Positions 466 through 36,135 of a stretch of DNA of 64,000 bases are shown one piece after another (within the stretch, counting starts at the first letter, position 1; each line of letters begins with the position of its first letter). The position numbers and the translations under genes were made by a program. The stretch comes from Sphingomonadaceae bacterium (GTDB taxonomy: Bacteria > Pseudomonadota > Alphaproteobacteria > Sphingomonadales > Sphingomonadaceae): assembly GCA_041746135.1 (NCBI GenBank), contig JBGTHQ010000002.1:44823-108822 (forward strand), given 5' to 3'. The notes under the pieces are model-generated. The model was given only the letters and a program-made list of their open reading frames with translations. It was not told the DNA's origin and searched no databases.

Positions 466-473
466 CCTACTCC

Positions 474-2498: not shown

Positions 2499-2511
2499 TG
2501 TTTACCTCGAT

Positions 2512-2550: not shown

Positions 2551-2570
2551 AATTTAAGAATATACAGTAT

Positions 2571-2690
2571 TTAGTCTGGGGAACATTTAGACGTGCATTC
2601 GCAGTCCAAGGCTTCCGATGCTGTCACCCCATCACCAGCCATTACTTCCATCTCAAGACGCTCATCCAACATTTCAAATTCGTTCTGCAT
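2571..2690 (-). CDS. Unannotated 39-aa Cys-rich precursor-like peptide (MQNEFEMLDERLEMEVMAGDGVTASEALDCECTSKCSPD)
   Basis: Hand translation of the minus strand gives ATG at 2690 and TAA at 2573-2571, with GAGGG 8 nt upstream of the ATG. The N-terminal half is acidic and leader-like. The C-terminal half carries CxCx3C plus Ser/Thr. A terminator hairpin and a protease gene lie immediately downstream. Confidence 0.5.
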   Translation of the reverse strand: MQNEFEMLDERLEMEVMAGDGVTASEALDCECTSKCSPD

Positions 2691-3028
2691 GATTACTGCC
2701 CTCTAAATGAGTATTAACTATGTAGCAGCCCCCCTTGGACTGCATTGCTAGTAAACGCTCTAAATTAAAATATGTCAATACTGATTGCGCGTTCTGTGAA
2801 ATATTCTATAGGTAGAGTGTTCCTTTACAAAACAAAATGATAATATGTTTTCAGCGTCATTGCAATTATTACTACCAGTAATGTTGTATTTCCGCCATTT
2901 TCAAAATTAGAGATCTGCCTTGTTCTTTCCGTAAACGTAAATCGAAATAAGTGTCTGAAATAATAGAATCAGTCGGTTCTAAATGGCATCATTATTAAAC
3001 TTAAAATAACTTTTCATGGAGAATTTGC

Positions 3029-3844: not shown

Positions 3845-3878
3845 ATATTGAATGGAATTTTGAGATCAGGAGGCGTCT

Positions 3879-4751
3879 ATGCTTTTGAATAAAATATTTG
3901 GAATGCTGGATATGCGCGGCAAGTTAATCCAAACTCAAATTGCGGATGCGTTAAAATTGAATATCTCGATTGAGGAAATTAATAGTTATCTCCTGTTTGA
4001 TACCATAACAAATTATGCTGCACTTCATATGCCCAAAATCTTCGTGAAAAAACTTGCTGCAGCGTCGATGGTTAATAGTACTCAATACCGGGCATCGCTT
4101 AACACAAATAATGGGGGAATAATTTTATCCGTGCCGCATTACGGTCCGTTTCTGTGGGCATGCATCGGGGCGGGAGAAATCATGCGCGAAGGTAGATCTC
4201 TACGCATTTTTTTCCAAGATCCAGAAGTAAATAAGGGCAACAAAATAATCAATGATACCCTTTCTCGCTTTTTTACGGAGGAAGAAATTTGTTTCGATGA
4301 CAGAAAAGGTTTGGCAAAAGCAGCACGGGCGCTTCAGCAAGGCGGATTGTGTATAATCATGCCAGACGCGTTAAGATCACACGAAAATAGTTTCTTAGTT
4401 CCGTTTCTGAACGGCGAATTTGAAGTTCAACCGGGTGTAGCCACACTCACAAGACTTACCAAAAGCAATATAGTTGCCGCTTATGTGACGAAAATAAGAG
4501 GTTGGAAATATAGCATAGAAACGGAAACTATTTTTCCAATCACCTCGGATGAGTTTTCTGCTTTAGAAAAGGATTACCTAGTTATGCAGGATATTCTCGG
4601 TGCGTTTTCCAATTATTTGCATAAGGAACCCATAGGGTGGAGATTCTGGATGACTTATCAGAGCCGCGTTCTATATAAGAATGAAACGCTCGAAAGCATA
4701 ACCGACAGTAATCTTCTGATGGAAATAAGAAAACTCATAAAGATTTGCTAA
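3879..4751 (+). CDS. LpxL/HtrB-like lipid acyltransferase family protein (tentative)
   Basis: The pattern GGLCIIMPDALRS...FLVPFLNGEFEVQPGVATLTRLTKSNIVAAYV resembles the lauroyl/myristoyl acyltransferase family core. However PHYGPFL lacks the acidic residue of the HX4D/E motif. Confidence 0.45.
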   Translation: MLLNKIFGMLDMRGKLIQTQIADALKLNISIEEINSYLLFDTITNYAALHMPKIFVKKLAAASMVNSTQYRASLNTNNGGIILSVPHYGPFLWACIGAGEIMREGRSLRIFFQDPEVNKGNKIINDTLSRFFTEEEICFDDRKGLAKAARALQQGGLCIIMPDALRSHENSFLVPFLNGEFEVQPGVATLTRLTKSNIVAAYVTKIRGWKYSIETETIFPITSDEFSALEKDYLVMQDILGAFSNYLHKEPIGWRFWMTYQSRVLYKNETLESITDSNLLMEIRKLIKIC

Positions 4752-4860
4752 CAGCATTTTATTAACAATAAACAAAGCAGCAAGATAGCATTGAAAATTC
4801 ATGGTAATTATGACAGACTGTGTAATTTGAAAAATTAGGGTACAAACTCATATTAAGGGC

Positions 4861-5874
4861 TTGATTTATTGCTGTGGGATTAATTCAACTTCCCTCGAAA
4901 AAAGCCATCTGCCCGCCAAGCAGACGCTGGACACGCTCGGCATCGCCCTGTCTACCTTCTACCGCTGGTATGATCTGTGCGAGCGCAGTTTCGGCGAAGA
5001 GGCACTGGAAGACCGGCGGCCGGGACCGCGCCGGGCATGGAACCGGATCCCGGAGGAGGTGCAAGACAATATCCTGGACATGGCGCTGGAACGCTGCGAG
5101 CTGAGCCCGCGAGAACTGGCGGTGACGTTCACCGATGAGCAGCGCTACTTTGTATCCGAAGCCAGCGTTTACAGGCTCTTGAAGCGCCATTACCTGATCA
5201 CCAGCCCCAACGTTATTGTAATGAAGGCAGCCAGCGAGTTCAAGGATAATACGACCGCGCCCAACCAGCTATGGCAGACCGACTTTACCTACTTTAAAAT
5301 CATTGGTTGGGGCTGATATAACCTGTCGACGATCCTCGACGATTACTCGCATTACATTATTAGCTGGAAGCTGTGCACGAAGATGCGGGCTGAGGATGTC
5401 ACCGATACGCTGGAGCTAGCGCTGGACGCCTCTGGCTGTGACCAAGCGCATGTGCTGCACAAACCACGCCTGCTATCGGACAATGGCCCCAGTTACATTG
5501 CTGGTGAGCTTGCCGACTATCTGGCCGACAAAAACATGCGCCATGTTCGCGGTGCATTCTTCCATCCGCAAACCCAAGGCAAGATCGAACGCTGGCATCA
5601 GACGCTTAAAAACCGCATCCTGCTGGAAAACTATTACCTGCCCGGCGATCTGGAGGCGCAGGTCGATGCGTTCGTCGAACATTATAATCACCAGCGCTAT
5701 CACGAGAGCTTGAAAAACATCACACCCGCCGATGCCTACTTCGGCAGGGCAGAAGCCACCATCAACAGGCGAGAAAGGATCAAACGTAAACCATCGAGCA
5801 TCGGCGCTTGCAATACCGCAAACAAGCCGCATAATATCAACCAACAGATGGAACCAAATACTCGCCTATTTTAA
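4861..5874 (+). pseudogene. DDE (rve) transposase pseudogene: N-terminally truncated and interrupted by one in-frame TGA (5314-5316)
   Basis: ORFs 4861-5316 and 5383-5874 are in the same frame. Read through the stop, the sequence is ...LWQTDFTYFKIIGWG*YNLSTILDDYSHYIISWKL...SDNGPSY...ERWHQTLK..., typical of an integrase core. Confidence 0.75.
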
Positions 5875-15058: not shown

Positions 15059-15288
15059 ATAGTATAGATCATAGTGAAATGTTAAACGATGATTTGCACA
15101 GGATTGATTGGGTGCCTGATAGTGACATTAAGCTGAGGCCGGGCAAATCCGATGCAGAGAATGATGTATCAATATTAGACGTGTTAGAGAAACAATTAAG
15201 AATCCATGCCGCTAACAACTATCGTCCGCTTACGAACGACCCGATTATTCCGCCTTACTCTCCTGTTATGAACGGGGGTGCCGCATAA
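15055..15288 (+). CDS. Small hypothetical protein (77 aa) coupled to the Cu ATPase gene
   Basis: Its stop TAA overlaps the ATPase ATG (TAATG at 15286-15290). Acidic; no motif recognised. Confidence 0.4.
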
Positions 15289-17414
15289 TGCCGCAAGGCA
15301 CGATCTACACCTGTCCGATGCATCCGGAAATCCGTCAGGAAGGTCCCGGCAGTTGCCCGATTTGCGGCATGGCACTGGAACCTGAAACCTTCAGCCTCGA
15401 TGACGGCCCCGATCCCGAATATATCGATATGCGCAGACGCTTCTGGGTCAGTGCGGCATTTTCGCTCCCGCTCTTTATATATGCGATGGGCGACCTTATT
15501 CCCGGCCGTCCTCTGGATGGACTTATCCGCTCCGACTGGTCGCAATGGTTTCAGCTTCTTCTTGCCGCGCCGGTCGTTTTATGGGGGGCTTGGCCATTTT
15601 TCGTGCGGGCGGTACAATCATTCAAAACACGCAACCTCAATATGTTCACGCTGATCGGTATCGGTGTTGGCGTCGCTTTTGCATTTAGTGTCGTAGCGAC
15701 TTTCCTGCCGGGTATTTTTCCGCCCAGTTTTCGCGGGATGGATGGCAATATCGCGGTCTATTATGAAGCCGCTGCCGTAATCACGACACTTGTATTGCTA
15801 GGCCAGGTTCTGGAATTGCGGGCACGCGGCGCGACGTCCAGTGCGCTGCGCGCCCTGCTCGAACTGGCACCGCCGGTCGCCGTTCGTATAAGCGGTGATG
15901 GCAGCGAGCAGGAAATCTCTCTGGATGAGGTCCAGCAAGGCGACCGGTTGCGGGTCCGCCCGGGTGAGAAAGTGCCTGTGGACGGCACAATCGAAAATGG
16001 CTCCAGTACAATCGACCAATCCATGATTACCGGCGAACCGATCCCGGTCGCAAAATCCGTCGGCGACGATGTGACCGGCGGCACGGTGAACCAGACCGGC
16101 AGTTTCGTCATGACAGCCGACCGGATCGGCAAGGATACGCTGCTTGCAAAAATCGTACAGATGGTCGCTGACGCACAACGCAGCCGGGCGCCTATCCAGA
16201 AGCTTGCGGATACGGTCGCCGGCTATTTCGTGCCGATAGTCATCGCAATCTCGCTCGTCACATTTGCCGTCTGGTCTATCTGGGGTCCGGAACCGGCGCT
16301 TGCGTATGGTTTGGTCAATGCCGTCGCTGTGCTCATTATCGCCTGCCCCTGTGCGCTCGGTCTTGCCACGCCGATGTCGATCATGGTGGGTACGGGCAAG
16401 GGCGCGCAAAATGGCATATTGATCAAGAACGCCGAAGCGCTCGAAACTCTGGAGAAAATCGACACAATCGTCGTCGATAAAACCGGGACATTGACCGAGG
16501 GCAAGCCCAAGCTGGTTTCAGTCGAACCGGAGAAGGGTTTTGACGGCGACGAAATGCTCGCCCTTGTTGCCGCAATCGAAATGGCGAGTGAACACCCGCT
16601 GGCAGCCGCAATTGTAACCGGCGCGAAGGACAAGGGGCTTTCGTTTGAAGCAGCAACCGATTTCCAGTCGGTGACCGGAGAAGGTGTTGAAGCCAGCGCA
16701 GGCGATAAGCGCGTCGCTATAGGCAATGAAAAAATGATGGACCGGCTTGGTGCCACCAGCGCGGAGCTGATTGCCAAGGCGCAGGATGGCCGATCGCATG
16801 GGCAAACGGTGATGTTTGTCGCTGTCGATGGCAAGCCTGCTGGTCTTATCGGTGTCGCCGATCCGATCAAGCCGACCACGAAAGAGGCGATCAAAGCGCT
16901 GCATAAAGCCAATATCCGCGTGGTCATGCTGACTGGCGATGCCGAAGCTACCGCGCAATCTGTTGGCAAGATGATTGGCATTGATGAAATCCACGCCAAC
17001 GTCTCCCCCGAAGACAAGCACCGCGTCATCAGAGAGCTGCAAGCGGCGGGTAAAATGGTCGCAATGGCAGGAGACGGCATCAACGATGCTCCGGCCTTGG
17101 CAAAAGCCGATGTGGGCATCGCCATGGGAACGGGAACGGATGTCGCGATGGAAAGCGCCGGGATCACGCTGGTCGGCGGCGACTTGGCCGATATCGCCAA
17201 AGCGCGGCGGCTCAGCAAATTGACCATGGGTAATATCCGGCAAAACCTGTTCTTCGCTTTTATCTATAACGGGCTGGGCGTGCCGGTGGCTGCGGGCATC
17301 CTGTATCCATGGTCCGGTATATTACTAAGCCCGATGATTGCGGCGGCAGCGATGAGCTTTTCCTCAGTCTCTGTGATTGGCAACGCGCTAAGGCTCCGGT
17401 CGAAGCAGCTGTAA
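15288..17414 (+). CDS. copA: Copper(I)/silver-translocating P1B-type ATPase
   Basis: Motifs CPC (TM6), [15 protein letters not shown], and YN...P with MSFSS in the last helices (P1B-1 signature). The N-terminal metal site is the CPMHPE...CPICGM type rather than GMTCxxC. Confidence 0.93.
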
Positions 17415-18166: not shown

Positions 18167-18733
18167 TTAGGCGTATGTGAGACGAGTCTTCACAGTCCGC
18201 TTACCATTTCGCACTGCGGCACCAATAAGACCAAAGCCCAAGATAAGCATGGCCCAGGTTGATGGTTCAGGAACAGCCGCCGCGATGGGCGAGGAAGTTG
18301 CATTCACAAAATTGGAAGAGCCGACCGTGCCAAATGTATTCACGCGATATTGCCTGGGTGTGCCCGAACTCTGCAAGAAGAAGCGAACGTCAAGTCCAGA
18401 TGCAGTAAAAAAGCGAGTTCCGCTGCCATCAAGGAAACCGGGACCAGTCGTGAAGTAATTGCCATAAGTACCGCCTGCTCCAAAACCTGCACCCATCAGA
18501 ACTGTAATAGCGGAGCCATTTACCATGCCTGTAATAGACAAGATAGAAAATGCTGTGTTTCCTGCAACGGTTTGGGCTGTATCAGAAGTTGTAAAGATAC
18601 CACTTCCGGAAACGGGTGGACCGAAAAGTGGCGCACTGGTGGTAAAGTCAAACATGAACTCTGCCGCCGATGCAGGTGACGCAGATAAAGCTAACGCGAG
18701 CGCAGTTGCAGCGCCTGTATATAAATTTTTCAT
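18167..18733 (-). CDS. PEPxxWA-CTERM (PEP-CTERM-type) sorting-domain secreted protein
   Basis: Signal peptide, an FMFDF (FxDxF-like) N-terminus, and the C-terminal VPEPSTWAMLILGFGLIGAAVRNGKR anchor motif. Confidence 0.8.
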   Translation of the reverse strand: MKNLYTGAATALALALSASPASAAEFMFDFTTSAPLFGPPVSGSGIFTTSDTAQTVAGNTAFSILSITGMVNGSAITVLMGAGFGAGGTYGNYFTTGPGFLDGSGTRFFTASGLDVRFFLQSSGTPRQYRVNTFGTVGSSNFVNATSSPIAAAVPEPSTWAMLILGFGLIGAAVRNGKRTVKTRLTYA

Positions 18734-19533: not shown

Positions 19534-20868
19534 CTAATTCCCCGATAGAAGCACCAGAGGTATCCGCAGGACCGTACGCAAGTCTGTTGCATCATCGGTA
19601 GCCCCAACTTCGATGGACCAATTCAGACTGGCCCGGTCTGTGACCCGGTAGGTAACACCGAATAAAAGCCGTCCGATCTGCAGGTCGCGCGTTGTGGATT
19701 CGATGGATCCCATGTTGCCCGGCGACGGATCGATCAGCCGCGTACGGGTGCGCGTGCCGAATGCCCAGCTGTGGGCATAACCTAGATTCAGCGTGGTCCG
19801 CTGGTTGAACGAGATGCCGATGCCAGCACTGGCAGAAATGGCATCGCCCGGATCGACATAGTCGATAATTACGGGCGGAATTGTAGTATTAACGCTTTTC
19901 CCCAGATTGAAAGTATAGCCAAGCGTCCCGAACAGGACAACGGGATCCGTTGGCAAAATAGCTGTTATGCTGGGCGCAATACCCCAAAACCCTGCCCCCG
20001 TAGCTGCTTCTTGCGCGCGGCCAAAATCATCGCGTTCTATGGAAAACGGGTCTGTTCCTGTTGGAATTACGCCCTGCAGATTGGCAATCACGTAAGGTGA
20101 ACCGTTGCCGCCATCGTTAAGCTGATAACGCGCGGTCAATTCGATATCGCCAATCCCGTTGCCCTTGACTGAATTATCGATGGTTGCCGCAGGATCATTG
20201 GGAGTGCTTCCGGCAACGGGCGCAATAATAGAGGTGTCCGAACGATATACATACGGCATACGGATACCCAGTTCGAGACGATCGGTAAGTCCGTATCGAA
20301 GAGCAGCGGATCCCGTTATCAGATCCTGGCGACTTTCGTTTATATCAAATACGCCGACCAAAACCGCCTCTACCAATTCAATACCGCGAAACACGGCGCG
20401 ATTGCGATCGGCACGGGCATATTCAATCTGCCACTCGCTTGTCAGCTGTCCCTTGCGGGTCACCACGCTTCCCTGACTGTCGAGGACGGCAAGCTGTATC
20501 TGCGCTTCATCTTCTTCAGGGGCCTGCCCAACCCGTTCAAGTTTTGGCAGCGGTGTCTGTAACACCCCAGAAGGATCGCCTGCTGGCCCCGGGGCAGCGG
20601 CCTGTGCAGCGACGACACCCGGAGCGGGCAGAGCTGCGGATGCCTGTGCATGAGCATTTAAATCACGGCTCGCGAGACGATTTTCCAGATCAGTCAGACG
20701 CGCGTCCTGTCGGTCCAGTCGTTCTTGTTGCGCCTGTATCAGGAGAAGCGCATCCTCAAGCTGTTCTTGCGTATTTTTGGTTTGCATTTCTTGTTCCGCT
20801 AGTGCGGGAACAGACGAAATAAAAGGAACGGAAATGCCTATTGCCAGAGCAGTACGGAAAGAATTCAT
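19534..20868 (-). CDS. Outer-membrane secretion pore, FapF-like architecture (signal peptide, coiled coil, Ala/Pro linker, beta-barrel)
   Basis: MNSFRTALAIGISVPFISSVPALA, then EQLEDALLLIQAQQERLDRQDARLTDLENRL (heptad-like), then an A/P-rich linker, then ~300 aa of alternating beta-strand-like sequence. A GGGGGA RBS is present. Confidence 0.7.
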   Translation of the reverse strand: MNSFRTALAIGISVPFISSVPALAEQEMQTKNTQEQLEDALLLIQAQQERLDRQDARLTDLENRLASRDLNAHAQASAALPAPGVVAAQAAAPGPAGDPSGVLQTPLPKLERVGQAPEEDEAQIQLAVLDSQGSVVTRKGQLTSEWQIEYARADRNRAVFRGIELVEAVLVGVFDINESRQDLITGSAALRYGLTDRLELGIRMPYVYRSDTSIIAPVAGSTPNDPAATIDNSVKGNGIGDIELTARYQLNDGGNGSPYVIANLQGVIPTGTDPFSIERDDFGRAQEAATGAGFWGIAPSITAILPTDPVVLFGTLGYTFNLGKSVNTTIPPVIIDYVDPGDAISASAGIGISFNQRTTLNLGYAHSWAFGTRTRTRLIDPSPGNMGSIESTTRDLQIGRLLFGVTYRVTDRASLNWSIEVGATDDATDLRTVLRIPLVLLSGN

Positions 20869-20881
20869 CCCTATTTCCCCC

Positions 20882-21640
20882 TTATTTACGAGTCAGTAAA
20901 CCATCGATTATCAAGCTGTCAATTCGAAGTGCCCCCGATCCCAACAAGGTCGCTTCTGCATTGCGAAGATCAATATTGATGGAGGTCTGCGTATCGATTA
21001 TCCGGTCGCTCCCCGCATTGGTTATGACGGATCCGAACGCATGCCCCGCCAGATGCCGGATGCTTATGTCGCTCGCTTGGAGTTGCGCGCTGGCCAAACC
21101 TTGCTGCGAGGACTGACTGATCGTGCCGTTGTCCGTTGCAATATCATGGCCGTTTGCAGACAATTCGGCAAACGCCGAATTCTCACCCGCTTCAGGAGGC
21201 GCAAAGGTGACACTGATTGACGGTGCATTTCGCGATTGCGTGATGTGAACGCCTGAACGACTGTCAAAACTGATAATCGGTGCTTCCGACGCGTTGCTCG
21301 TCGAAGTCGATGTTGCTCCGGAAGTCGGTGCGGCGACCGGTTCACCCGGTTTAGGTGCAAATACGGAAAACTGCGGAGATCCCTGATCCAAACGAAAAAC
21401 GGTCCTGAGAACAATAGCGCCGTCGATGGCCGTTTGTGATTGCACCGTGAGGGCCACATCGACCCCGTTCGGCAGTTTGAAGCCGCCTCGGTGCGCCGAA
21501 AGCTCAATTTCCGGGAGCGGCACATATTCGTCGGCAAACACGCGCTCTTGATCGGACTGAGGAGCATCAGAATAGGTCGTTTGCACGTCATCAGCCAGAG
21601 GGGCATATTCGAGCGCTGCTGCAAGGGCCAGTAAGATCAT
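20882..21640 (-). CDS. Hypothetical secreted protein in the FapE position (252 aa)
   Basis: Its start overlaps the C39 gene stop (TGATG at 21640). Ser/Thr/Ala-rich. Assignment rests on size and position only. Confidence 0.55.
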   Translation of the reverse strand: MILLALAAALEYAPLADDVQTTYSDAPQSDQERVFADEYVPLPEIELSAHRGGFKLPNGVDVALTVQSQTAIDGAIVLRTVFRLDQGSPQFSVFAPKPGEPVAAPTSGATSTSTSNASEAPIISFDSRSGVHITQSRNAPSISVTFAPPEAGENSAFAELSANGHDIATDNGTISQSSQQGLASAQLQASDISIRHLAGHAFGSVITNAGSDRIIDTQTSINIDLRNAEATLLGSGALRIDSLIIDGLLTRK

Positions 21641-22341
21641 CAGAAATCTCCGTAAAATGGGGCAGTTAGCGAGAGAGCCTGTTGACTGACAGGCTCGGTC
21701 ATCAGCGAACCTGCTGGCGCGCGATTATACGCGCTCCATTGCGCCGCCCGATTGAATTTGTTTTTGGCAAGCTGCTGTTCGTTGGCAATCACGAAATATA
21801 TGCCGTTCCATGCGGACTCAAAGTCTTTGCGATCCATGATCGTTAATCCTGTCGACGGATCGCCCAATAGGATTTCGGCACCGCTTACACCTTTGACGAC
21901 CACAAAATGGCGATAATTCTTTATGGAAATCAGCGCTATTCCCGGAACGCCGGTTTCGGCTATTTTATCCAGAGTGACTTCATACCCGTTGGCATTGAGC
22001 CCGTGGCTGGCCAGCCAGCGTTTCATATCCAGCAAGGAGAAACCGACCTGGCGGATTTTCTGGCGATCGCCCTTTGCCCACATGCCGCGAAATGCATCAT
22101 CTTCATCGACGGCAAAATCATAATGATAGCGTAATAAAGTCGCCAGAGCGGCCGAACCGCAGCTGAAATCGAATTGCTGTCGCGTCACACCTGAAAACCG
22201 CCTGTCAACAACGCTTTTCACATTGAGCGAATAATCCCCTACCGGCATAGCGGCCGCAATGAACTGCGGTGATGTCGTCGACGCCACCGTAGGGGCGCAC
22301 CCTGTCAACAGGGTGCTGAAAAATATGTAGATCAAGCGCAT
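21640..22341 (-). CDS. C39-family cysteine peptidase lipoprotein (FapD-like)
   Basis: Lipobox LLTGC. C39 core RQQFDFSCGSAALATLLRYHY ... GIALISIKNYRHFVVVKG ... LGDPS. Confidence 0.85.
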   Translation of the reverse strand: MRLIYIFFSTLLTGCAPTVASTTSPQFIAAAMPVGDYSLNVKSVVDRRFSGVTRQQFDFSCGSAALATLLRYHYDFAVDEDDAFRGMWAKGDRQKIRQVGFSLLDMKRWLASHGLNANGYEVTLDKIAETGVPGIALISIKNYRHFVVVKGVSGAEILLGDPSTGLTIMDRKDFESAWNGIYFVIANEQQLAKNKFNRAAQWSAYNRAPAGSLMTEPVSQQALSLTAPFYGDF

Positions 22342-22775
22342 TATTGCCCGGGACTGATCGATATGTTTACGTTCATGGACGCGTTTATGGCAACATTGTT
22401 GCCCGTATTGACATTCAGTATCGAAAGACCCGATAAATTCTGGAAAGCGTTGTCGGAGACTGTAGCGTTACCCGTGACAGAATTACTCCCCACGCTGTTG
22501 CGGGAAACCCCCGCCGTTTGCGTGGCGGTGGAAGTTTGGTTCACATCCTCCCTGCCGGCAATCGCACTCAGCATTTTATCATCAATTGCGCCAGCACCGA
22601 ACAGATTATCGGCTGTATTTACGGATTGAAATATAGAGTCGTCGATCGCCAAACTGGCTAGCGTTTCGCTCGCGATTTCAGCTCCGGGTTCGTTTGCAAA
22701 AGCATTGGTCGTGATCGTGCCGAAGAATACGCCGGACAGGCACAAGGAAACTCCCGTTTTTAAAAATTTGGACAT
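22341..22775 (-). CDS. Small secreted protein with one Fap-repeat-like C-terminal module
   Basis: The start is moved to MSKFLKTG at 22775 (GGGAGAA RBS). It has a signal peptide ending AFA. The C-terminus NAFQNLSGLSILNVNTGNNVAINASMNVNISI is shared with the 468-aa protein. Confidence 0.65.
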   Translation of the reverse strand: MSKFLKTGVSLCLSGVFFGTITTNAFANEPGAEIASETLASLAIDDSIFQSVNTADNLFGAGAIDDKMLSAIAGREDVNQTSTATQTAGVSRNSVGSNSVTGNATVSDNAFQNLSGLSILNVNTGNNVAINASMNVNISISPGQ

Positions 22776-22844
22776 GCCAATTCTCCCGTCAAAAAAAAGT
22801 GCCAGCGGCGACATATAAATCGCCGCTGGCCAAAAGTGCGTTTC

Positions 22845-24251
22845 TTAGAACGATACATCGCCTGTGGAAACCGCCACGCTGACATTCGCATTTTGCGTCG
22901 CGCCTACGCCAGTATTCTGGTTGAGCGCCTGCATTCCGGCGAAATTCTGGAACGCATTGCCATCGTTGCTGATGCTGTTATCGATCGGCGCTGCAGGGCC
23001 ATCACCGCTACCATATGTGACGGTAATACCCGTAACATAGCTGGAAAGCGTTGCACTTGCGACGATCGCACTATCGCCAAAGACATTATCGGATGTAGCT
23101 GTTCCGGTATCCGCAGAATTGTCATTGTAACTATCGCTAACGGAACTGTCGTTTCCGCTATCGGCAACCCGGATCGAGTTATCGGAATTGTCCGAATTGT
23201 CCGAATTGTCGTTCCCACTGTCGGCAACATCGATAGAATTATCGTTGAAGCTGTCATTGATGGAATTGTCATTTCCACTGTCGGCAACATCGATCGAGTT
23301 GTCATTGGTGGAATTGTCATTCCCACTATCGGCTACGGCGATGGAGTTGTCATTGCCGCTGTCGTTGGTGGAATTGTCGTTTCCGCTGTCGGCAACGTCG
23401 ATAGAGTTGTCGTTCCCGCTATCATTGGTGGAATTATCGCTGCTGTCGTTGACAGAGCTACCCCCGTTGGCAGCAAAACGACCGCCATTTGCCGACGTAT
23501 TTGTGGAGTTGTCATTGCCACTATCATTGGTGGAATTGTCATTGCCACTATCGGCCACCTGTATGGAATTGTCCGAATTGTCATTGCCGCTGTCGGCGAC
23601 ATCTATCGAATTGTCGTTTTGACTGTCGGTATTTCCGCTATCCGCGACATTGGTCGAGTTGTCGTTGAAGCTGTCATTGATAGAACTATCATTCCCGCTA
23701 TCTGCAACATCGATCGAGTTGTCATTCCCGCTGTCGGCGGTGTTGGTCGAATTGTCGTTTCCGCTGTCCGCGACGTCAATCGAATTGTCCGAATTGTCAT
23801 TACCGCTATCCGCAACATCTATCGAATTATCGGAATTGTCATTACCGCTATCGGCAACATTCGTGGAATTATTCGAATTGTCGTTTCCACTGTCGGCGAC
23901 ATCGATAGAGTTGTCATTCCCGCTATCGGCAGTGTTGGTCGAACTGTCGTTCCCACTGTCCGCAACATCGATCGAATTATCCGAACTGTCGTTTCCACTG
24001 TCCGCAACGTCGATCGAATTATCCGAACTGTCGTTTCCGCTGTCGGCAACATTCGTGGAATTATTCGAATTGTCGGTATTGGTCGAAGCAGACGATCCAT
24101 TATTAGCGCCATTCTGACCGGCATTTGCAGCGCTGTTGTCCGAACCGCTGGAATCCTGCGCGGCAGCAACTCCTGGAATCGCAACGAGCAGCGCCGCTGC
24201 CGATACAGACCGAACGAGCTGATTTTTTGTCAATTTTATCATGGTAAGCAT
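22845..24251 (-). CDS. Secreted hyper-repetitive Asp/Asn/Ser protein (468 aa), presumed cargo of the Fap-like system
   Basis: Signal peptide (..AIPGVAAAQ). I count about 18 copies of xVADSGNDNS in 14-residue units. The C-terminus is NAFQNFAGMQALNQNTGVGATQNANVSVAVSTGDVSF. The start may be the second ATG at 24242. Confidence 0.8.
   Translation of the reverse strand: MLTMIKLTKNQLVRSVSAAALLVAIPGVAAAQDSSGSDNSAANAGQNGANNGSSASTNTDNSNNSTNVADSGNDSSDNSIDVADSGNDSSDNSIDVADSGNDSSTNTADSGNDNSIDVADSGNDNSNNSTNVADSGNDNSDNSIDVADSGNDNSDNSIDVADSGNDNSTNTADSGNDNSIDVADSGNDSSINDSFNDNSTNVADSGNTDSQNDNSIDVADSGNDNSDNSIQVADSGNDNSTNDSGNDNSTNTSANGGRFAANGGSSVNDSSDNSTNDSGNDNSIDVADSGNDNSTNDSGNDNSIAVADSGNDNSTNDNSIDVADSGNDNSINDSFNDNSIDVADSGNDNSDNSDNSDNSIRVADSGNDSSVSDSYNDNSADTGTATSDNVFGDSAIVASATLSSYVTGITVTYGSGDGPAAPIDNSISNDGNAFQNFAGMQALNQNTGVGATQNANVSVAVSTGDVSF
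23100..24075 (-). repeat. Coding tandem repeat, ~42-nt unit (DNSIDVADSGNDNS)
   Basis: Periodic GTCGGCAAC(A/G)TCGAT(A/C)GA(A/G)TT(A/G)TC... units. The copies differ mostly at codon third positions by eye. Confidence 0.85.
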
Positions 24252-24419
24252 CCTTTTATATTAGCCTAAGGCGCAACGGTGAAATGAAAGACTCACTGTC
24301 GTCGCGGCGCTTTGAAAATAGCGCCCTGCATTACTAGGATGATCGGAAGCAAAACCTTCCCCTCGCTTGGGAATTAACTTTGCCCTAATCCGGTAGCTTT
24401 CTCTCCCCCCATATTGGGG

Positions 24420-25556
24420 TCAGAAGGGTTTGGAATGACAAGGCCAAGTTGTGCGAACAGAGCTTTTTAAAAGCAGACATACCAATTCCGCCTGCCTGTT
24501 TGTATCGGTTTTCAAAAATACTTGTTTGAGATAAGAGCGAGCAGTCTGTATTTTGACACGCAATTCTTTTGCAGCATCCTGCAATGTACAGCCATTAGCC
24601 AGCCGACAAGCCAGTCGCGACTCCACTGGAGACAAGGCGTAAAGTTCGCACACGGGCATAATAAGAAAATCGATATCCGATTGCGGATCTATAAGGTTGA
24701 TGACGGCAACCGTGCCTGCATTTTTTATGGTCGGAAAATTGCTGCCAGAAACCGTCGCGATAAGAGGTCGCTTTAGTTTGCGGTTAATTGTTACTACGGG
24801 ACTGCAATGATTGCCTTCGAACTGGGGCCGTTTGCCAATGGCAAAAACATGCTCGATTGCAGCCTGTATGCGTAGGGTTTCTGAAAAATTGGCGCAAGCG
24901 AGCCGGTTGTTACTAAGCCAAAGTCCATTGTCGGCAATGATTAATCTTTCCGCCGCATCATTCACAAGGATAATATGGCCATCGGCATCAACCAAAATAG
25001 TTCCAGTTTCGCTGTTATTGATAGCCGCCATAAAGGCTTCCTGGCGAACATGTTCGTTCATTTGAAGATCAAGAATTTTGAAAAACGCATCGGCCGTAGG
25101 CATGAGATGCACCGCCGCGGTATTCGCTCGTATACGATCATGCGACTGAATCCGCCAGAATAAAGCCGTAATTGTAACCAGGGTTTTGTGTGCGAAGAAT
25201 TTGATCGTCAGCAATTCTCGCGAAGTGCCTGTTTGTTCAGGGGCAACCCAGAACAGTTTCGTTTCGATGTTTTCAGCGGAAAGCGAAGCCTGCGCTGCAT
25301 CAAACATTTCCTGTTCAATGATGGGATTTTCAAAACAGCTTTTTGGTTCGTTTATAAATCGCGTTTTACGGTCAGGATAATGCAGCGCGATCAAGATTGC
25401 ATCCGCAGCCAGTTCTTTTAGTATTTCCTTGGCAAAATCGCCAAATGGTTCATGTATTTCATCCGCAAAGTCAAACTCTTCAAACTCCAAAGAAGAATGC
25501 ACAAGCATTTCTGGAGAAAAAGAATTCGCAATTGATTGAACCATTTCGACAGACAT
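24420..25556 (-). CDS. LuxR-family transcriptional regulator with PAS-like sensor domain
   Basis: C-terminal LSPVESRLACRLANGCTLQDAAKELRVKIQTARSYLKQVFLKTDTNRQAELV (HTH_LuxR). Central ETGTILVDADGHIILVNDAAERLI (PAS-like). The start is moved to the ATG at 25556 (GGAGAGG RBS). Confidence 0.85.
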   Translation of the reverse strand: MSVEMVQSIANSFSPEMLVHSSLEFEEFDFADEIHEPFGDFAKEILKELAADAILIALHYPDRKTRFINEPKSCFENPIIEQEMFDAAQASLSAENIETKLFWVAPEQTGTSRELLTIKFFAHKTLVTITALFWRIQSHDRIRANTAAVHLMPTADAFFKILDLQMNEHVRQEAFMAAINNSETGTILVDADGHIILVNDAAERLIIADNGLWLSNNRLACANFSETLRIQAAIEHVFAIGKRPQFEGNHCSPVVTINRKLKRPLIATVSGSNFPTIKNAGTVAVINLIDPQSDIDFLIMPVCELYALSPVESRLACRLANGCTLQDAAKELRVKIQTARSYLKQVFLKTDTNRQAELVCLLLKSSVRTTWPCHSKPF

Positions 25557-26183
25557 AAACCCTCTCCACGCATGCAAAGCCCCTCTATTGAGGGTACATT
25601 GCTGTTAAATTTACATGCGACCCAGCAAACTAAAACGTTGCTGAATTTTCGAATAGGGAAATTCCGCTGTCGTTTTGCAGGCTGGCAACCAAATATGCGA
25701 CTCGATAACCCACTTTATGTTTTTTTTGTTCTCCGGTAAAGCGAAAATACCTCGAAATCCTACTATTTGCAGCTAGTTCATATAGATTAGCAACATAGAT
25801 TGCATTTCACATTTTTTCCTTTTCGCATTATTCATTTAATATTCATTGTATGAAATCGTCACCAGGCCAATATATTTTTCAAGGGCGATATCGTGATTGC
25901 GTGCCAGCACGAAGAAGGCGCTGTTAGGGACGATCCTTGGTGGCTATTCGTGAGACTATCAGCCAACGCCTGAATGCGCTCTGTTTCCGTTTCTGAATAC
26001 ATCCGCCCTCAGGGTAAATTAAAGGATTTGCGCTCTAAAGAGTGATGCAAATTTGCCTATCCTTGCTCACAAACACTTAAATGAGGTGGTAAAAGGGGCG
26101 AGAACGCTCTTGGTGCGCTTGCTAGCTGATGCGGGAAATTCATAAAGTAAGGCTTTTTTGCTTTAGTACCTACTACCTCATCA

Positions 26184-29844: not shown

Positions 29845-30210
29845 TCATTTCTTTCGGATAGCTTTCACCTCTCCCCCGCTCTTGGCAATCTCAACGTCGA
29901 ACGTGATATCATCCCCGGGCTCTATGTCAGCCAGTAAAGCTGCATCCGCATCAAAGGTCATGGTCATGGCAGGCCACCCGGCTTCGGGAATCGGGGCATG
30001 GGCTATGGTCACTTTACCCGCGGCTTGATCGATCTGGGTGACGCTGCCGTCGCTCGTCGCCATAACAGGATGTTGAGCGCTTGCCACTTTGGCTTGCGAA
30101 CGCGCGCTGTCGGTATTTTGATTGCGATCTCGCAGTTCTTCTGCGTTATTTCCGCAGGCCGATAGTGCGGCCAGCGCGATCGCGCTCGTCAGTCTTGGCA
30201 AAATATTCAT
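29845..30210 (-). CDS. cusF: Periplasmic copper/silver-binding protein CusF-like
   Basis: Lipoprotein-like signal (LSACG). [24 protein letters not shown] motif. The start overlaps the cusA stop (ATGA). Confidence 0.8.
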
Positions 30211-33200
30211 ATCGTTTCTCCTTCAAATTGGTTGTTGTCTTTCTTACGCAGTTCCCGTTGTCGAAGCAGCAGATAGGCCGCTGGTACAACGAACATGGAC
30301 AGAAGCGGAGCTGTAATCATCCCGCCCACCATCGGCGCCGCGATACGCCGCATGACTTCAGACCCGATGCCGGAACCGATCAATATCGGGAACAGACCCG
30401 CGAGAATGACCGCCACGGTCATGGCTTTGGGTCGGACCCGCAACAGCGCGCCTTCACGCACGGCTTGCATAATGTCGCCCGCAGTCGGTGCGTTCCCTTT
30501 TTCTTGCAAAGCCTGCTTCAGATAGATCAGCATGATGACACCGAATTCTGCCGAAACTCCCGCCAAGGCGGTAAAGCCGACGGCGGTCGCGATCGACTGG
30601 TTCACGCCCATAAAATAGAGCAGCCACAAACCACCTGTCAGGGCGAATGGCAATGTGGCCATAATGATGAGCGCTTCGTCAAACCGGCGAAATGTGAGAT
30701 AGAGGAGCAGGAATATGATCGCCAACGTTGCGGGAACGACGATCAAGAGCCGATCCTGCGCACGTTGCAGATATTCGAACTGCCCTGTAAAGGACACGCT
30801 GACGCCAGCTGGCAGGTCGACCTGTTCATCAATGGCGGTCTGCAAATCATCCACGACCGACACCAGATCACGGCCGCGAGAATCGATATATATCCATGTC
30901 GACGGACGACCGTTTTCAGACCGCAACATGGGCGGTCCGGCGCTGATGCCGATATCGGCTAGATCGCCTAGAGTAACCTGCTGCCCCGCCGGGGTCAGAA
31001 CCGGAAGCGTGCGAAGATCGCTCAAGCTATCCCTTATTTCTCGGGGGTAACGCACGTTGATCGGATAGCGCGCCAGTCCCTCCACCGTTTCGCCGATATT
31101 GCGGCCCCCAATGGCACTCGCGACGATCGACTGGACATCGGAAATATTCATGCCGTACCGCGCCGCCGCGAGGCGGTCGATGTCGACATCGATATACCGA
31201 CCGCCGGTCAGACGCTCGGCCAGCGCCGACGACACGCCCGGCACTTGCTTGGCCACCGCCTCCAGTTTCTGCGCCGTTGCATCAATGCTATCCAGGTCAT
31301 TGCCCGACACCTTGATTCCAATCGGGCTTTTGATGCCAGTGGCCAGCATTTCTATCCGGTTGCGGATCGGCGGTATCCAGAAATTGGTAATCCCCGGAAC
31401 CTGCACAGCCCTATCGAGTTCCTTCACCAGCTTGTCAGGCGTCATCCCGGCGCGCCATTCGCTGCGCGGCTTGAACTGGATGGTGGTTTCGAACATCGTC
31501 AGCGGCGCAGGATCGGTCGCGGTATCGGCCCGGCCTGCTTTGCCGAACACGGTTTCAACCTCGGGTACGGTTTTGATCATGCGGTTGGTTTGTTGCAATA
31601 GTTCCGAAGCCTTGGCGGGAGACAGTCCGGGCAATGTATTGGGCATATAAAGCAAGTCGCCCTCGTCCATTTGCGGCATGAATTCTCCGCCCAATTGGCT
31701 GACCGGCCAGGCGCTGGTCGCAAACACCAGCAACGCGATCACCAGAACTTTTTTCGGATATTTGAGCGACCAGTCCAAGGCGGGCTGGTAAATGCGGGTC
31801 AGAAAGCGGTTAACCGGATTGGCCTCTTCCGACGGTATTTTGCCGCGAATGAAATATCCCATCAAAACGGGGATCAAGGTCACCGATAATATCGCCGCCC
31901 CGGCCATCGCATAGGTTTTGGTAAAGGCAAGCGGAGCGAACAAGCGACCCTCCTGTCCTTCCAGCGTGAAAATCGGCAGGAACGAGAATGTGATGATCAG
32001 CAGGCTCAGGAATAACGCGGGCCCGACCTCGACGGACGAATCCACGATCAGTCGCCAATGTTCCTGCAGTGGTATCTTGTCGGCGTCGTGATCGCTTCGC
32101 CATCGCTCCAGATGCTTGTGCGCATTTTCGATCATAACGACCGCGGCGTCCACCATGGCGCCAATGGCAATGGCGATCCCGCCCAGCGACATGATGTTCG
32201 CGTTAATCCCCTGAAACCGCATGACCAGAAAAGCGAACAATATGCCGAGCGGTAATGTCAGCACCGCCACCAACGCTGATCTTATATGCCACAGGAAAAG
32301 CGCGCAGACGATGGCAACGACGATAAATTCTTCGATCAGTTTTTCTGTCAGGTTGTCGACCGCGCCGTCAATCAGTTCGGAGCGGTCATAGACCGTGACG
32401 ATTTCCACACCGGGCGGAAGGCTGGCCTTGAGCTCTGCCAGCCGGGTTTTGACCGCCGCTATCGTTTCGCGGGCATTTTTGCCCGAGCGCAGAATGATGA
32501 CCCCGCCCGCAACCTCGCCCTCCCCATTCAGTTCGGCTATACCGCGGCGTATTTCCGGGCCAAGCTGCACACGGGCAATATCGCCCAGCACCACGGGGAT
32601 ACCGCCCGCTTCGGTTTTGAGCGGAATAGACCGAAAATCGGACAGGTTTTGCAAATAGCCGCTCGCGCGAACGATATATTCGCGTTCAGCCAGTTCGACG
32701 ATCGACCCGCCGACTTCGGTATTGGCGGACTGAATCGCTTTAATGGCCGTGTCCTGATCGATCCCAAACGACACCATTCGGTCAGGATCAAGCACGATCT
32801 GATACTGTTTGACCATGCCGCCGATCGAGGCGACTTCGGCCACCCCCGGTACGGTTTGTAGCTCGTACCGCAAAAACCAGTCCTGAATACTGCGCAGATC
32901 GGATAAATCGTTCTGCCCCGTTCTATCGACCAGCGCATATTCATAGATCCAGCCCACCCCGGTCGCATCGGGTCCAAGTTCGGGCATTACGCCTTCGGGC
33001 AGATCCCCTTGAACGGAACTCAGATATTCGAGCACGCGCGAACGCGCCCAGTAGAGATCGGTGCCATCCTCGAACAATATATAGACATAGCTATCGCCGT
33101 TGAAAGAGTAGCCGCGCACGGCCCGGGCTCCGGGAACCGACAGCATGGTGGTCGCCAGCGGGTAGGTGACCTGATTCTCGACAATTTGCGGTGCCTGTCC

Positions 33201-33362
33201 AGGATAGGGTGTGCGGATGATCACCTGCACGTCGGACAGGTCGGGTAAGGCATCGACCGGTGTGGTGCGCACGGCCCATATGCCTGCCGCAAGCAAAGCG
33301 GCCATGATGAGCAGCACCAGTGCCCGCGCCTGAACGCTGGCGCGAATGACCTTACCGATCAT
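30207..33362 (-). CDS. cusA: Heavy-metal (Cu/Ag) efflux RND transporter, CusA/CzcA family
   Basis: 1051 aa with 12-TM RND layout and a typical HME-RND N-terminus [18 protein letters not shown]. It sits in an operon with CusB, CusC and CusF types. Confidence 0.93.
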
Positions 33363-34846
33363 TGCGCTACCTGTGTGCGCTTGATGCTGGTGACGGTGAC
33401 GACGGAGCCAGACTTTTCAAAGGTGAAATCGACTGGATCGCCTTTTTTGAAGCCGCGCATCATAGCCGGTTTGGCGAGTTCGAAACTCATTGTCATGGCT
33501 GGCCATTTGATAGCTGGTACAGGACCGTGCGATAATATCACGGCGTCGCCCTTGATCGCCTCGATCTTGCCCGAAGCTTTATAACCCCCTGCCTTTGCCG
33601 GTCTGGCGGGCAACTCTCCTTGCAAAGGCCGCACATCGATGCCTGAAAGGCTGGCTTCGGAATCGACCAGGAACTGTCCCGATATTATCACATCCTCGCC
33701 CGGTGACAAACCCTGGAGAATCTCGGTCTGGCCTCCGCCTTCACGGCCGATTTTGACCTCGGCGGGTCTGTACCGGCCTTTGCCGCTGGCGAGCATCACC
33801 AGCGTTCTTTCGCCCGTCTCTATGATCGCCTCGCTGGGCACCAGGATCGCGGGATTGGTATTGGTTACCAGATCGACCGTCGCAAACATTCCGGGGCGAA
33901 GCTGGCCGCGCGGATTGGGGAGTTCGATCAGCGCGGTGAGCGTTCGGCTTTCGGTCTGCGCGGCAGGCAATATCGCCCGGACCTTGCCTGTAAACGTCTT
34001 GCCGGGAAAACTGGAAAGCTCGGCGATGGCGGTTTGTCCGGGCCGTACGTCCGCCACGCGCGCCTCCGGTACAGCGCCATAGAGCCAGACCGTCCCGAGC
34101 CCGTTTATTTGAGCAAGCGATTGGCCGGACGATAATGTCATACCCGGTCTGACGCTCAGCGTATCGATGGCACCGCTGACGGGCGATCGCACGGTGTAGA
34201 CCGTTTGTTGCCTGCCGGTCCGGGCAACCTGCCGTATCAACCCCTCGGGCATACCCAGAAGGCGCAACCTCTCGCGTGCGGCATTGGCAAACGCACTGTT
34301 TCCGCTTTTTGCCAACGCAAGATATTCGGCCTGCGCGCCGCCCCAATCGGGCACCAGAATATCGGCGATCGGTGCGCCTGCGGATATCACATCACCGGGT
34401 GCACGGCGATATGTGCGCTCGACAAAGCCTCCGGCACGCGCCTGTACAATGGCTATATCGCGCTCGTTATATTCGATCGTCCCCGTGATGTTCAGGCTGT
34501 TTTCGAGTGTGCCAACCCTGGCCTTGGCGGTGCGTATGCCAAGATTCTGGGCGATGCGCGGGTTGATCGAAATGCCCGGCGCAGCTTTGGAATCGTTCGC
34601 TTCATCTGCATATTTCGGCACCAATTGCATATCCATAAACGGCGATTTTCCCGGCTTGTCGAATTTCTGATCGGGAAACATCGGATCGTAATAATACAGT
34701 ACTTCGCCCTGACCATCAGCCATCTCCAGGGTGTCTTTGTCACCCGATCCGGTTGTGCCAAGCCAGTATCCCCCACCGGCCGCCAGTACAGCGGCAAGAA
34801 TTGCAAATGCGCCCCATCGCGCCTTTTCCGTAGCGGGAATCTTCAT
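33359..34846 (-). CDS. cusB: Efflux RND periplasmic adaptor (CusB-like) with fused C-terminal CusF-like domain
   Basis: [28 protein letters not shown]-terminal motif, an HlyD-type barrel-sandwich, and C-terminal [31 protein letters not shown]. Confidence 0.9.
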
Positions 34847-36135
34847 GGCATATTCCTGTCATAAGTAAATTTGATGCGAATCGTGTCGCGCACGAGTGAT
34901 GCTTCCCGGTCGAGAAGATCGATTTCAGCTTCTGCAAGCGCAATCACGGCATTCAGAGCCGTGCCAAGATCGACGCGGCCCGCACCGTAGCTGACCCTTT
35001 CCAGTTCCGCCTGTGTCTTGGTCAACGGGACCAGAATGTCTTTCGATCGATCCCAGTTTTCGCGAAGTGCGCGGTTGCCCGCTAGGTCACCGGAAAGCTG
35101 CGCAATCAGCTGCCGCTCCACATCCTGGGCCTCCAGCCGTGCCGCATTGGCTTCGAGTATGCGTGCATTGATCAGCGGATCCTGCCTTTTCTTTGAAAAT
35201 AACGGAAGATCGATAGTCACGCCAAGCGAAACATAGCTGCCATATTCCGGCCGCCGCTGGGTAAAGCTGGCATTGACCCCGAAATCGGGTCGCTTGTTCG
35301 CGCGCGCAAGATCGATATCGGATTCGGCGCGCTGTATTCGTGCTTGCTCCACTTCCAATATAGGGAGGGCATCAATTCCGCTTCTCAGTTCGGATGCTTC
35401 AAGAGAGATAAGCGGCGGCCGGCCGGATATTTGTGGATTTTCAAGCCCTGTCCATCGCGACAGAACTGCTTGCGCCTTTTCCAGTTCGGCTTGGAGCAAG
35501 CTGCGCCGGTCGGCAAGCCGTGCCTTTAATCGCTCCGGTTCGAACGCTTGAGACGGCCGTGTGGCGCCCGATGTGAGCCTGGCGGCGGAGGTCGCGGACA
35601 GATCGTCCAGGCTTTTCTGTAGTAAAGTCAGGATATCCAAACGCTGTTTGACATAATAGACATCCACCCACGCGAGCGCGGAATATAACCCGATATCCTG
35701 TATTTCCGCGGACTTTGCCGCACGCGCTATACCAATATCGCTTCGCGCCTGATTTACGCGGGCGCGGCGTTTCGCGGCATTGGGAAATTCCTGCGACACG
35801 CCGATCCTGCCGCGCGGGAACCCGTCGCGTCCGGGACGAAGAGACGGCTCGAATGGGCCCGCGACTCTCTGATCCAATAAATCAATGCTGAGTTTCGGGT
35901 CAGGCAACTGGTTGGCAGGTAAAAGTTTGCTTTCGGCAGCCTCTACCTGAAGCGATCGCGCTTCGATTGTCGGGGCAGTTTCAAGCGCACGCTCGATAGC
36001 TTCCTCAAAATCGATCGGTTCTGCAACAGCGGGAAACGCTGCAATCCCGAAGACAAGAGTGTAGACACATACAGTGTGAAACCGGATGTGGGAGTTTTTC
36101 AATGTGCGTTTTATAATCATCTTAACCGCTCGCAT
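34843..36135 (-). CDS. cusC: Outer-membrane efflux protein (TolC/CusC family)
   Basis: Two OEP-type coiled repeats. 4-nt overlap with cusB. The start may be the MIIKRT at 36120. Confidence 0.85.
   Translation of the reverse strand: MRAVKMIIKRTLKNSHIRFHTVCVYTLVFGIAAFPAVAEPIDFEEAIERALETAPTIEARSLQVEAAESKLLPANQLPDPKLSIDLLDQRVAGPFEPSLRPGRDGFPRGRIGVSQEFPNAAKRRARVNQARSDIGIARAAKSAEIQDIGLYSALAWVDVYYVKQRLDILTLLQKSLDDLSATSAARLTSGATRPSQAFEPERLKARLADRRSLLQAELEKAQAVLSRWTGLENPQISGRPPLISLEASELRSGIDALPILEVEQARIQRAESDIDLARANKRPDFGVNASFTQRRPEYGSYVSLGVTIDLPLFSKKRQDPLINARILEANAARLEAQDVERQLIAQLSGDLAGNRALRENWDRSKDILVPLTKTQAELERVSYGAGRVDLGTALNAVIALAEAEIDLLDREASLVRDTIRIKFTYDRNMP

Follow-up and report, generated by a model that had tools for sequence, protein, structure and literature searches.

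Does an alphaproteobacterium possess a counterpart of the amyloid export machinery that is encoded by the fap operon of Pseudomonas? This question is raised by five tightly packed open reading frames (ORFs) on the minus strand (positions 19534-24251) of a 64,000-nt stretch of a Sphingomonadaceae genome (contig JBGTHQ010000002.1, positions 44,823 to 108,822), which we call the window. The original prediction, made from the sequence of the window, had proposed a Fap-like operon with the gene order FapD-FapE-FapF, a non-canonical cargo and an alphaproteobacterial host, and this proposal is supported by profile, structure and synteny evidence. Together with a PAS/LuxR-type regulator gene located upstream, the five genes constitute one conserved module, a genuine six-gene cluster that is kin to the Pseudomonas Fap amyloid export machinery and that is widespread in Sphingomonadales, yet without annotation there. 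All five minus-strand ORFs lie where they had been predicted, and the finer details were recovered as well, namely the one-base stop/start overlaps TAATG at 22341 and TGATG at 21640, the motifs QQFDFSCGSAALATLL and HFVVV, the coiled-coil stretch and the shared C-terminal NAFQN..G...LN.NTG.

Proteins of the FapD, FapE and FapF type

The last gene of the cluster (19534-20868, minus strand) encodes a 444-aa protein for which a relationship to FapF had been proposed, and both sequence and structure comparisons bear this out. The protein matched the NCBIfam FapF model with an E value of 4.6e-35 (121.2 bits, model positions 19-417 of 420), its sole matches among PDB sequences were the FapF crystal structures (5O67, E 7e-28), and BLASTP aligned it with Pseudomonas FapF at 25% identity over 419 aa, with the coiled coil and the linker included in the alignment. 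It is composed of a signal peptide, a heptad helix at residues ~33-72, in which Leu or Ile can be read from the sequence at each seventh position (37, 44, 51, 58 and 65), an Ala/Pro-rich linker (~75-133) and a beta-barrel (~142-443). The same architecture of signal peptide, long helix (33-72), disordered segment (75-133) and barrel (142-443) was obtained in an AlphaFold2 (AF2) model based on an alignment of 30 relatives, with a predicted local distance difference test score (pLDDT) of 70.6. When this model was compared with the PDB by Foldseek, the top 18 matches were all FapF chains (E 1.7e-17, target-normalised template modelling score 0.76-0.81), followed by the COG4313 channel 4RL8 (E 8e-11) and then by autotransporter barrels. 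Sequence and model together predict a FapF-type protein, in which a barrel is combined with an N-terminal coiled coil and a disordered linker in the same way as in Pseudomonas Fap (structures 5O65, 5O67 and 5O68; Rouse 2017, PMC5557850).

The FapD-like C39 gene (21640-22341, minus strand) encodes a 233-aa protein that had been described as a lipoprotein with a C39 peptidase core, a description with which our results agree. It matched NCBIfam FapD (E 2.8e-44, 151 bits) and Pfam C39 (E 3e-19) and is 41% identical to Pseudomonas FapD. We aligned 46 sequences, comprising 44 relatives, the 233-aa protein and Pseudomonas FapD, and found the catalytic residues Cys61 and His145 in every one of them, while the lipobox Cys15 (LLTGC in the 233-aa protein) was present in 34. 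The protein is predicted to be a standalone C39 peptidase with catalytic Cys and His, as is characteristic of FapD and as found in Pseudomonas, and also to be a lipoprotein, in contrast to Pseudomonas FapD, which has Pro in place of the lipobox Cys.

The gene in between (20882-21640, minus strand), which is separated from the 444-aa gene by 13 nt, encodes a 252-aa protein whose proposed FapE identity is supported at the profile level only. Pairwise BLASTP against FapE was not significant. When 56 relatives from related loci were combined in a profile and compared with a Pseudomonas FapE profile by hhalign, the match was co-linear (89.6%, E 1.9e-6); a larger alignment of 105 members, for which 1.84 billion representative proteins had been searched exhaustively, gave 93.1% and an E value of 3.3e-7 over 191 co-linear columns. 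The NCBIfam FapE model was matched individually by 23 of these 105 relatives at E<=0.01 (best E 6e-8), and an HMM (hidden Markov model) of the FapE-like family, run against 8,564 six-frame ORFs from 80 Pseudomonas fap loci, matched FapE alone. The profile found nothing among PDB sequences. The family amounts to 218 clusters at 50% identity, and the segment EIELSAHRGGFKLPNG of the 252-aa protein (residues 43-59) resembles NDAELAELRGRFVMPG of FapE. Taken together, the profile comparisons identify the 252-aa protein as a remote FapE homolog. The label 'Ser/Thr/Ala-rich', which it had been given, applies to it moderately only.

The module and the Pseudomonas fapABCDEF operon are alike in the D-E-F order, with homologs of all three genes, and the identities of 41% for FapD and 25% for FapF are close to the averages of accepted Fap systems outside Pseudomonadales (39% and 32%, respectively). 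Judged by these sequence relationships, we consider it very likely that the module is homologous to the Fap machinery.

The secreted substrates and their shared motif

The first gene of the packed series is the cargo gene (22845-24251, minus strand). The product, of 468 aa, has a Sec signal peptide and an array of ~325 aa, made of short variable repeats that are rich in D, N and S and have ADSGN as their core; its conserved C-terminal domain of ~80 aa ends in one Fap-type repeat. In the DNA, the array takes the form of imperfect tandem repeats with periods of 33, 42 and 60 nt. The mature protein contains 80 acidic and only 2 basic residues (net charge -78), and D, N, S, G and T account for 75% of it. 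A fixed 14-residue repeat, as originally proposed, does not describe this array, in which the 21 DSGN cores follow each other at distances of 11 or 14 residues (six times each) and also of 9, 16 and 20. The relatives of the cargo span ~200-930 aa (upper bounds, as these are longest-ORF calls), and they differ in their arrays while keeping the C-terminal ~80 aa. The cargo had no match in Pfam, NCBIfam or PDB, and a word-indexed homolog search with it was swamped by the repeats and returned 13 matches only. Within the array, two non-repeat islands stand out, AANAGQNGANNGSS at residues ~40-55 and GGRFAANGGSSV at ~255-266, and homologs have counterparts of the form G-R-x-AANNG-S/G-T-V. Antisense to the cargo gene runs a 477-aa ORF (22836-24269, plus strand) with an I/V/R/G-rich translation; we rejected it as a gene and regard it as a mirror artefact of the repeat array.

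Directly 3' of the cargo stop, a hairpin with a 12-bp stem, including 9 G-C pairs, is located at 22801-22830 and followed by T8 (element 22791-22830, minus strand). Its folding energy is -26.5 kcal/mol (z -5.5), and none of 200 shuffled sequences was as stable. Nearly all related loci likewise have a GC-rich hairpin behind the cargo stop, with differing sequences, suggesting a terminator-like or attenuator element between the cargo gene and the downstream genes. This is the placement expected where a major structural subunit is transcribed in excess of the assembly genes.

The next gene (22341-22775, minus strand) encodes a small secreted protein of 144 aa. Its longest reading would give 157 aa (22341-22814); as that reading overlaps the hairpin and gene callers chose 144 aa, the start is most likely the ATG at 22775. 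The protein has a signal peptide, contains the motif IDDxxLS...GRED and bears a single Fap-type repeat at its C-terminus. We found 344 homologs; among the 120 listed, the names given by the sources were all 'hypothetical protein' and none had a Pfam domain.

The C-terminal motif that had been claimed for both the cargo and the small protein is present: their C-termini are 47% identical over 32 aa (BLASTP, E 2e-5), and the last ~35 residues are strongly conserved in both substrate families (75 sequences), with a consensus of roughly AFQN-x-x-G-x-x-x-x-N-x-N-T-G-x-x-x-x-x-N-A-x-x-N/S-V. This fits the published consensus of FapB repeat 3, G-psi-psi-Q-psi-N-Q-x-a-G-g-N-x-N (PMC12392863). When a motif HMM was run against the 8,564 ORFs of the Pseudomonas fap loci, it matched FapB only (best E 0.002); 38 of the 79 FapB proteins were found at E<1 and 19 at E<0.1, with the matches falling on repeats 2 and 3, and the best ORF other than FapB had an E value of 2.7. 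Neither the reversed motif profile nor 20 column-shuffled profiles matched FapB at E<1 (best E 61). In hhalign, the small-protein family aligned with FapB repeat 2 at 41% identity over 39 columns (E 0.0034, or 6e-4 with trimmed profiles). In common with Pseudomonas Fap, the module has a large and a small Sec-secreted substrate, both with a repeat of the type G-psi-x-x-psi-N-Q-x-a-G...N. Outside the repeat, AIDDKMLSAIAGRED in the 144-aa protein (residues ~64-78) resembles SIDDSVLSQQ of FapB, and the non-repeat motif of the small protein also aligned with the N-terminus of FapE (hhalign, E 0.0013). Such shared non-repeat motifs are candidate recognition elements for FapD or FapF.

Conservation, regulation and genomic surroundings

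For a survey of the module we used 79 metagenomic loci with FapF-like proteins 43-80% identical to the 444-aa protein. The genes for the regulator, the small protein and the D-, E- and F-like proteins occur in the same orientation in all 34 loci with enough upstream DNA, and the complete order regulator-cargo-small-D-E-F, with a cargo detectable by phmmer, was found in 32 of these, down to 43% FapF identity. The nearest relatives, at 75% identity or less, point to Sphingomonadales as the source of the window. Named relatives belong to Sphingomonas, Novosphingobium, Croceicoccus, Aurantiacibacter, Qipengyuania and Polymorphobacter; in the copy on a Croceicoccus marinus megaplasmid, the RefSeq labels are four times hypothetical protein, once 'C39 family peptidase' and once 'transporter'.

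A rearranged module is present in Brevundimonas sp., a member of the Caulobacterales (CP195593.1, L162 8001-12840), with the cargo, small-protein, C39 and FapE-like genes on one strand and the FapF-like gene plus a Crp-family regulator on the other. Its 220-aa protein matched the Sphingomonad E profile at 1e-14 and the Pseudomonas FapE profile at 1.4e-4, and its 138-aa protein matched the Sphingomonad small-protein profile at 1e-16 and the FapB profile at 0.002. Because profiles of both groups are matched, these FapE-like and small proteins, as far as profile similarity goes, bridge the Sphingomonad and Pseudomonas systems. In one metagenomic locus (L149 3534-6247), three motif-bearing genes were found, two of them cargo paralogs and the third the small protein, which suggests a cargo duplication.

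A FapF-like gene (phmmer 2.3e-53 to the 444-aa protein) was also seen on a plasmid of Indioceanicola profundi (L167 6581-7933), beside a LuxR-type gene. No C39, FapE-like or motif-bearing genes adjoin it there, and for lack of a C39 neighbour we rejected this locus as the same system and consider it another use of the barrel family.

The regulator gene (24420-25577, minus strand) encodes 385 aa when read from the longest TTG start, its true start being uncertain. Its product showed sub-threshold PAS matches (7.8e-4), a match to NCBIfam BagY/FevT LuxR over residues 180-370 (7.4e-6) and a GerE value of 0.22, whereas GerE was above the cut-off (9.6e-6) in the homolog from locus L129. In each of the 34 loci with at least 4.3 kb of upstream sequence, the regulator gene is co-oriented and directly upstream of the cargo gene. 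The GerE match in L129 and the conserved position support the proposal of a dedicated PAS-LuxR regulator. The 168-bp intergenic region between the regulator and cargo genes (24252-24419, minus strand) is, by its position, the presumed operon promoter and target of the regulator; a search of its minus strand for a sigma-70-like consensus gave no match.

The operon had further been placed directly after an island junction. We did not find one near ~19.5 kb: a search for tRNA genes, Rfam matches and neighbouring Pfam domains yielded nothing at the operon border. Of mobile elements, the window showed a single trace, an IS3-like transposase that lies 14 kb away from the operon and is split over two frames (4861-5316 and 5383-5874, plus strand) into parts that by eye are a helix-turn-helix part and an rve-like part. 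It borders a stretch of low GC content (0.38-0.44 in the profile of positions 1-5000, compared with ~0.55 in the rest of the window). Past the downstream end of the operon, at a distance of ~800 bp, lies the gene of a 188-aa protein of the exosortase-sorted PEPxxWA-CTERM type (18167-18733, minus strand; NCBIfam 2.5e-13). It is probably not part of the module, since only two related loci, besides two near-identical Logan contigs that carry the sequence of the window itself, have a similar protein 3' of the module. Between 9439 and 17414, the genes are a mix related to stress and metals, including a Crp-family regulator, an alternative oxidase (2.9e-85), a cupin-GNAT protein, an L,D-transpeptidase, a universal stress protein and a 708-aa ORF (15288-17414) that by eye resembles a heavy-metal P-type ATPase; on the other side, a resistance-nodulation-division (RND) pump of a generic kind, which gave the only match in a megablast comparison with plasmids, is located at 30207-33362, next to two ORFs at 33359-36135. 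The surrounding region looks accessory, and its boundary was not found.

A model of assembly, its alternatives and related systems

What would these genes do together? By homology, they are predicted to encode a FapD/FapE/FapF-type outer-membrane export apparatus and two Sec-dependent substrates that share a FapB-like repeat, and we think it likely that they make up a divergent alphaproteobacterial Fap-type secretion and assembly system. In our model, which adopts for FapD, FapE and FapF the roles described in Pseudomonas (PMC5557850, PMC6173800), the PAS/LuxR regulator would switch on the promoter upstream of the cargo gene, and the hairpin would let part of the transcription pass into the accessory genes, so that the cargo, as the major subunit, would be produced in surplus. 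Through its net charge of about -78, the cargo could stay unfolded and soluble in the periplasm, making a FapA-type chaperone unnecessary. The lipid-anchored C39 peptidase may process the FapE-like and/or the FapF-like protein, as proposed for Pseudomonas, and a gated FapF-like trimer with its periplasmic coiled coil would export the FapE-like protein together with the two substrates. Once outside, the cargo and the 144-aa protein would stack onto each other by their single C-terminal repeats, giving an intermolecular cross-beta core, with the small FapB-like protein acting as nucleator and the FapE-like protein holding the fibre at the cell, while the long acidic repeat arrays would point away from the cell and form a hydrated coat that probably binds cations. 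For the formation of true cross-beta fibres in particular, we put the chances at somewhat under even.

Several observations weigh against the module being a Fap system. The FapD and FapF equivalog cut-offs of 330 and 700 bits are missed by the 233-aa protein (151 bits) and the 444-aa protein (121 bits), whereas Pseudomonas FapD and FapF score 421 and 768 bits. The 252-aa protein alone has no direct family match in Pfam or in NCBIfam, including FapE, and its signal peptide is atypical in lacking a positive n-region. Neither the cargo nor the small protein matched NCBIfam FapB or FapC even at E 10, while as a positive control the NCBIfam FapA, B, C and E models scored the canonical proteins above their cut-offs; likewise, a mixed FapB/FapC repeat HMM from the 80 Pseudomonas loci found nothing in the Sphingomonad-type loci or in the window, even with the filters off. 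Instead of the three repeats of ~38-39 residues that define FapB and FapC and that are described as almost universal (PMC12392863, PMC12822426), each substrate has a single repeat-like motif. The similarity of the FapB type is short and weak, with hhalign probabilities of 9-28%, and in view of these low probabilities we regard the relation of the small protein to FapB as suggestive rather than proven. The resemblance of the motif to the FapB/C repeats, noted in the original prediction, appears real and specific to FapB, yet it is weak and the FapB and FapC models remain unmatched. Moreover, a charge as negative as that of the cargo is unusual in an amyloid subunit (the net charge of Pseudomonas FapC is -2), and the AF2 model of the cargo (pLDDT 41.7) was without a confident fold, a result that is uninformative given an alignment of 14 sequences.

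Some of these observations would suit Fap-type export of a product that is not amyloid, i.e., a soluble or loosely attached, disordered and polyanionic surface protein that serves, e.g., in cation binding, hydration or desiccation protection, or anti-adhesion, and whose motif is a targeting or anchoring signal for the FapF- or FapE-like proteins. Such a product would be in keeping with the charge, the composition and the lack of a confident fold of the cargo, with the single repeat in each protein and with arrays that vary in length and sequence next to a fixed C-terminus, as is typical of a passenger with a signal. We see in it the main rival of our model, but the less likely of the two: the motif resembles the amyloid-forming FapB repeat itself, a separate small protein with the same motif fits a nucleator/subunit pair comparable to FapB and FapC, and a homolog of FapE, which is fibre-associated in Pseudomonas (PMC5557850), has been kept, which suggests assembly over release.

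Very improbable, by comparison, is that the 444-aa protein is an uptake channel for hydrophobic compounds of the COG4313 or 'MetA-pathway of phenol degradation' type, with neighbours unrelated in function. Its match to Pfam PF13557 is above the gathering cut-off (E 5.7e-8, score 33.5 against 22), 4RL8 is the next-best fold match and databases call the protein 'transporter'. FapF is, however, far better by sequence, as the sole PDB match, and by structure (1.7e-17 versus 8e-11); the alignment with FapF extends over the N-terminal coiled coil and the linker; strict synteny with the FapD and FapE homologs and with one or more motif-bearing substrate genes holds in 34/34 loci; and C39 peptidases are not reported beside COG4313 channels (PMC6173800). 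This suggests that the PF13557 and 4RL8 matches reflect kinship at the superfamily level rather than a shared function. We can hardly credit that the module is a putative pilus system like 'Fil' of Acinetobacter, in which FilB is the C39 peptidase and FilC the barrel, or an exporter of double-glycine bacteriocins or peptides. In favour of such a reading are matches to FilB (4e-31, 108 bits) and FilC (8.4e-15, 55 bits), as well as matches to the C39 domains of bacteriocin ATP-binding cassette (ABC) exporters at 1e-7 and weaker. The FilB and FilC scores, however, are below the cut-offs of 475 and 630 bits and lower than those to FapD (151 bits) and FapF (121 bits), and they are obtained equally well with canonical Pseudomonas FapD and FapF, as expected of a shared superfamily only. 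Moreover, the FapE homology is Fap-specific, the module has no ABC transporter, and its substrates bear Sec signal peptides, not double-glycine leaders.

A Fap-type system as we propose it would differ from Pseudomonas Fap in several respects. The substrates each bear a single repeat in place of three; the gene of the large substrate precedes that of the small one and is followed by a putative attenuator hairpin, unlike the order fap(A)BCDEF; and the cargo is dominated by variable and extremely acidic short repeats of the ADSGN type. The module includes a PAS/LuxR regulator of its own, a kind of gene that is said to be absent from the fap operon, which encodes no regulator (PMC6173800), and the hosts of the module belong to Sphingomonadales and Caulobacterales. 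There is indeed no FapA gene in the module, as had been pointed out, but this carries little weight, being the commonest variant of the canonical fap operon (PMC3792158). With one repeat in place of three in each substrate and with scores below all curated Fap equivalog cut-offs, we place the module outside the canonical Fap operons; as the sequences suggest, it pairs D-E-F machinery with one-repeat substrates and a large variable passenger. Acinetobacter FilABCDEF (NF050078 FilB, NF050079 FilC) is likewise built of a standalone C39 peptidase and a FapF-superfamily barrel beside secreted structural proteins, but its similarity to the module is lower than that of Fap, to which the FapE homology also points; we found no literature on the Fil mechanism. 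The nucleation-precipitation pathway of curli (CsgA/CsgB/CsgG) resembles the module in combining a major subunit and a minor nucleator that share a repeat with unfolded export across the outer membrane; as the proteins and the channel are unrelated, this is an analogy of concept only.

Fap was first reported as restricted to Beta-, Gamma- and Deltaproteobacteria, and in the same work the FapD and FapF HMMs matched many proteins outside fap operons (PMC3792158). It was later found in 25 genera (PMC6173800), and screens based on GTDB add a few further phyla (PMC12392863, PMC12822426). In their conclusions, these screens, for which FapBC_repeat matches are required, describe the three repeats as almost universal and the system as evolutionarily fixed. 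Since FapB/C-repeat matches were required, the published surveys probably miss the module and hence undercount the family. Orders with co-localised fapD-fapF pairs are listed in the covered parts of a 2018 review (Rouse, Matthews and Dueholm, PMC6173800), where no cargo, FapE homolog or regulator is described, and the portion of its supplementary table covered contains no Sphingomonas entry. Going by those parts, such pairs resemble the module in having FapD- and FapF-like proteins within 5 kb and no detectable FapB/C repeats, and with the HMMs of that work the module would fall among them. We found no literature linking Fap to Alphaproteobacteria or Sphingomonas, in a search whose coverage was incomplete and which is no proof of absence.

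A wider proposal, which we offer tentatively and which is possible rather than probable, is that the Fap-type machinery is a broader outer-membrane secretion and assembly platform, on which alphaproteobacterial fibres are built from single-repeat subunits bearing long, hypervariable polyanionic arrays. These subunits would stack on one another by their C-terminal repeats, with a one-repeat FapB-like protein as nucleator. If true, this would be a modular surface polymer of the 'amyloid stalk plus passenger' kind, with its own attenuator-controlled stoichiometry, its own PAS/LuxR switch and one cross-beta layer per subunit, and Fap would not be 'fixed' as a three-repeat amyloid system.

Fap serves as a model of controlled amyloid export, as a biofilm target and as a nanomaterial scaffold. 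Its range would now extend to Alphaproteobacteria, with Sphingomonadales that are common in soil, on plant surfaces and in the sea as well as Brevundimonas, in which databases label the genes of the module only as 'hypothetical', 'C39 family peptidase' or 'transporter'. The module would also constitute a natural experiment on the smallest repeat unit with which FapF-dependent export and nucleation can occur and, through the motifs IDDxxLS and D.EL..RGGF that are common to both systems, on recognition by FapD and FapE. Finally, the combination of a single-repeat tag with a variable passenger suggests a possible natural display scaffold.

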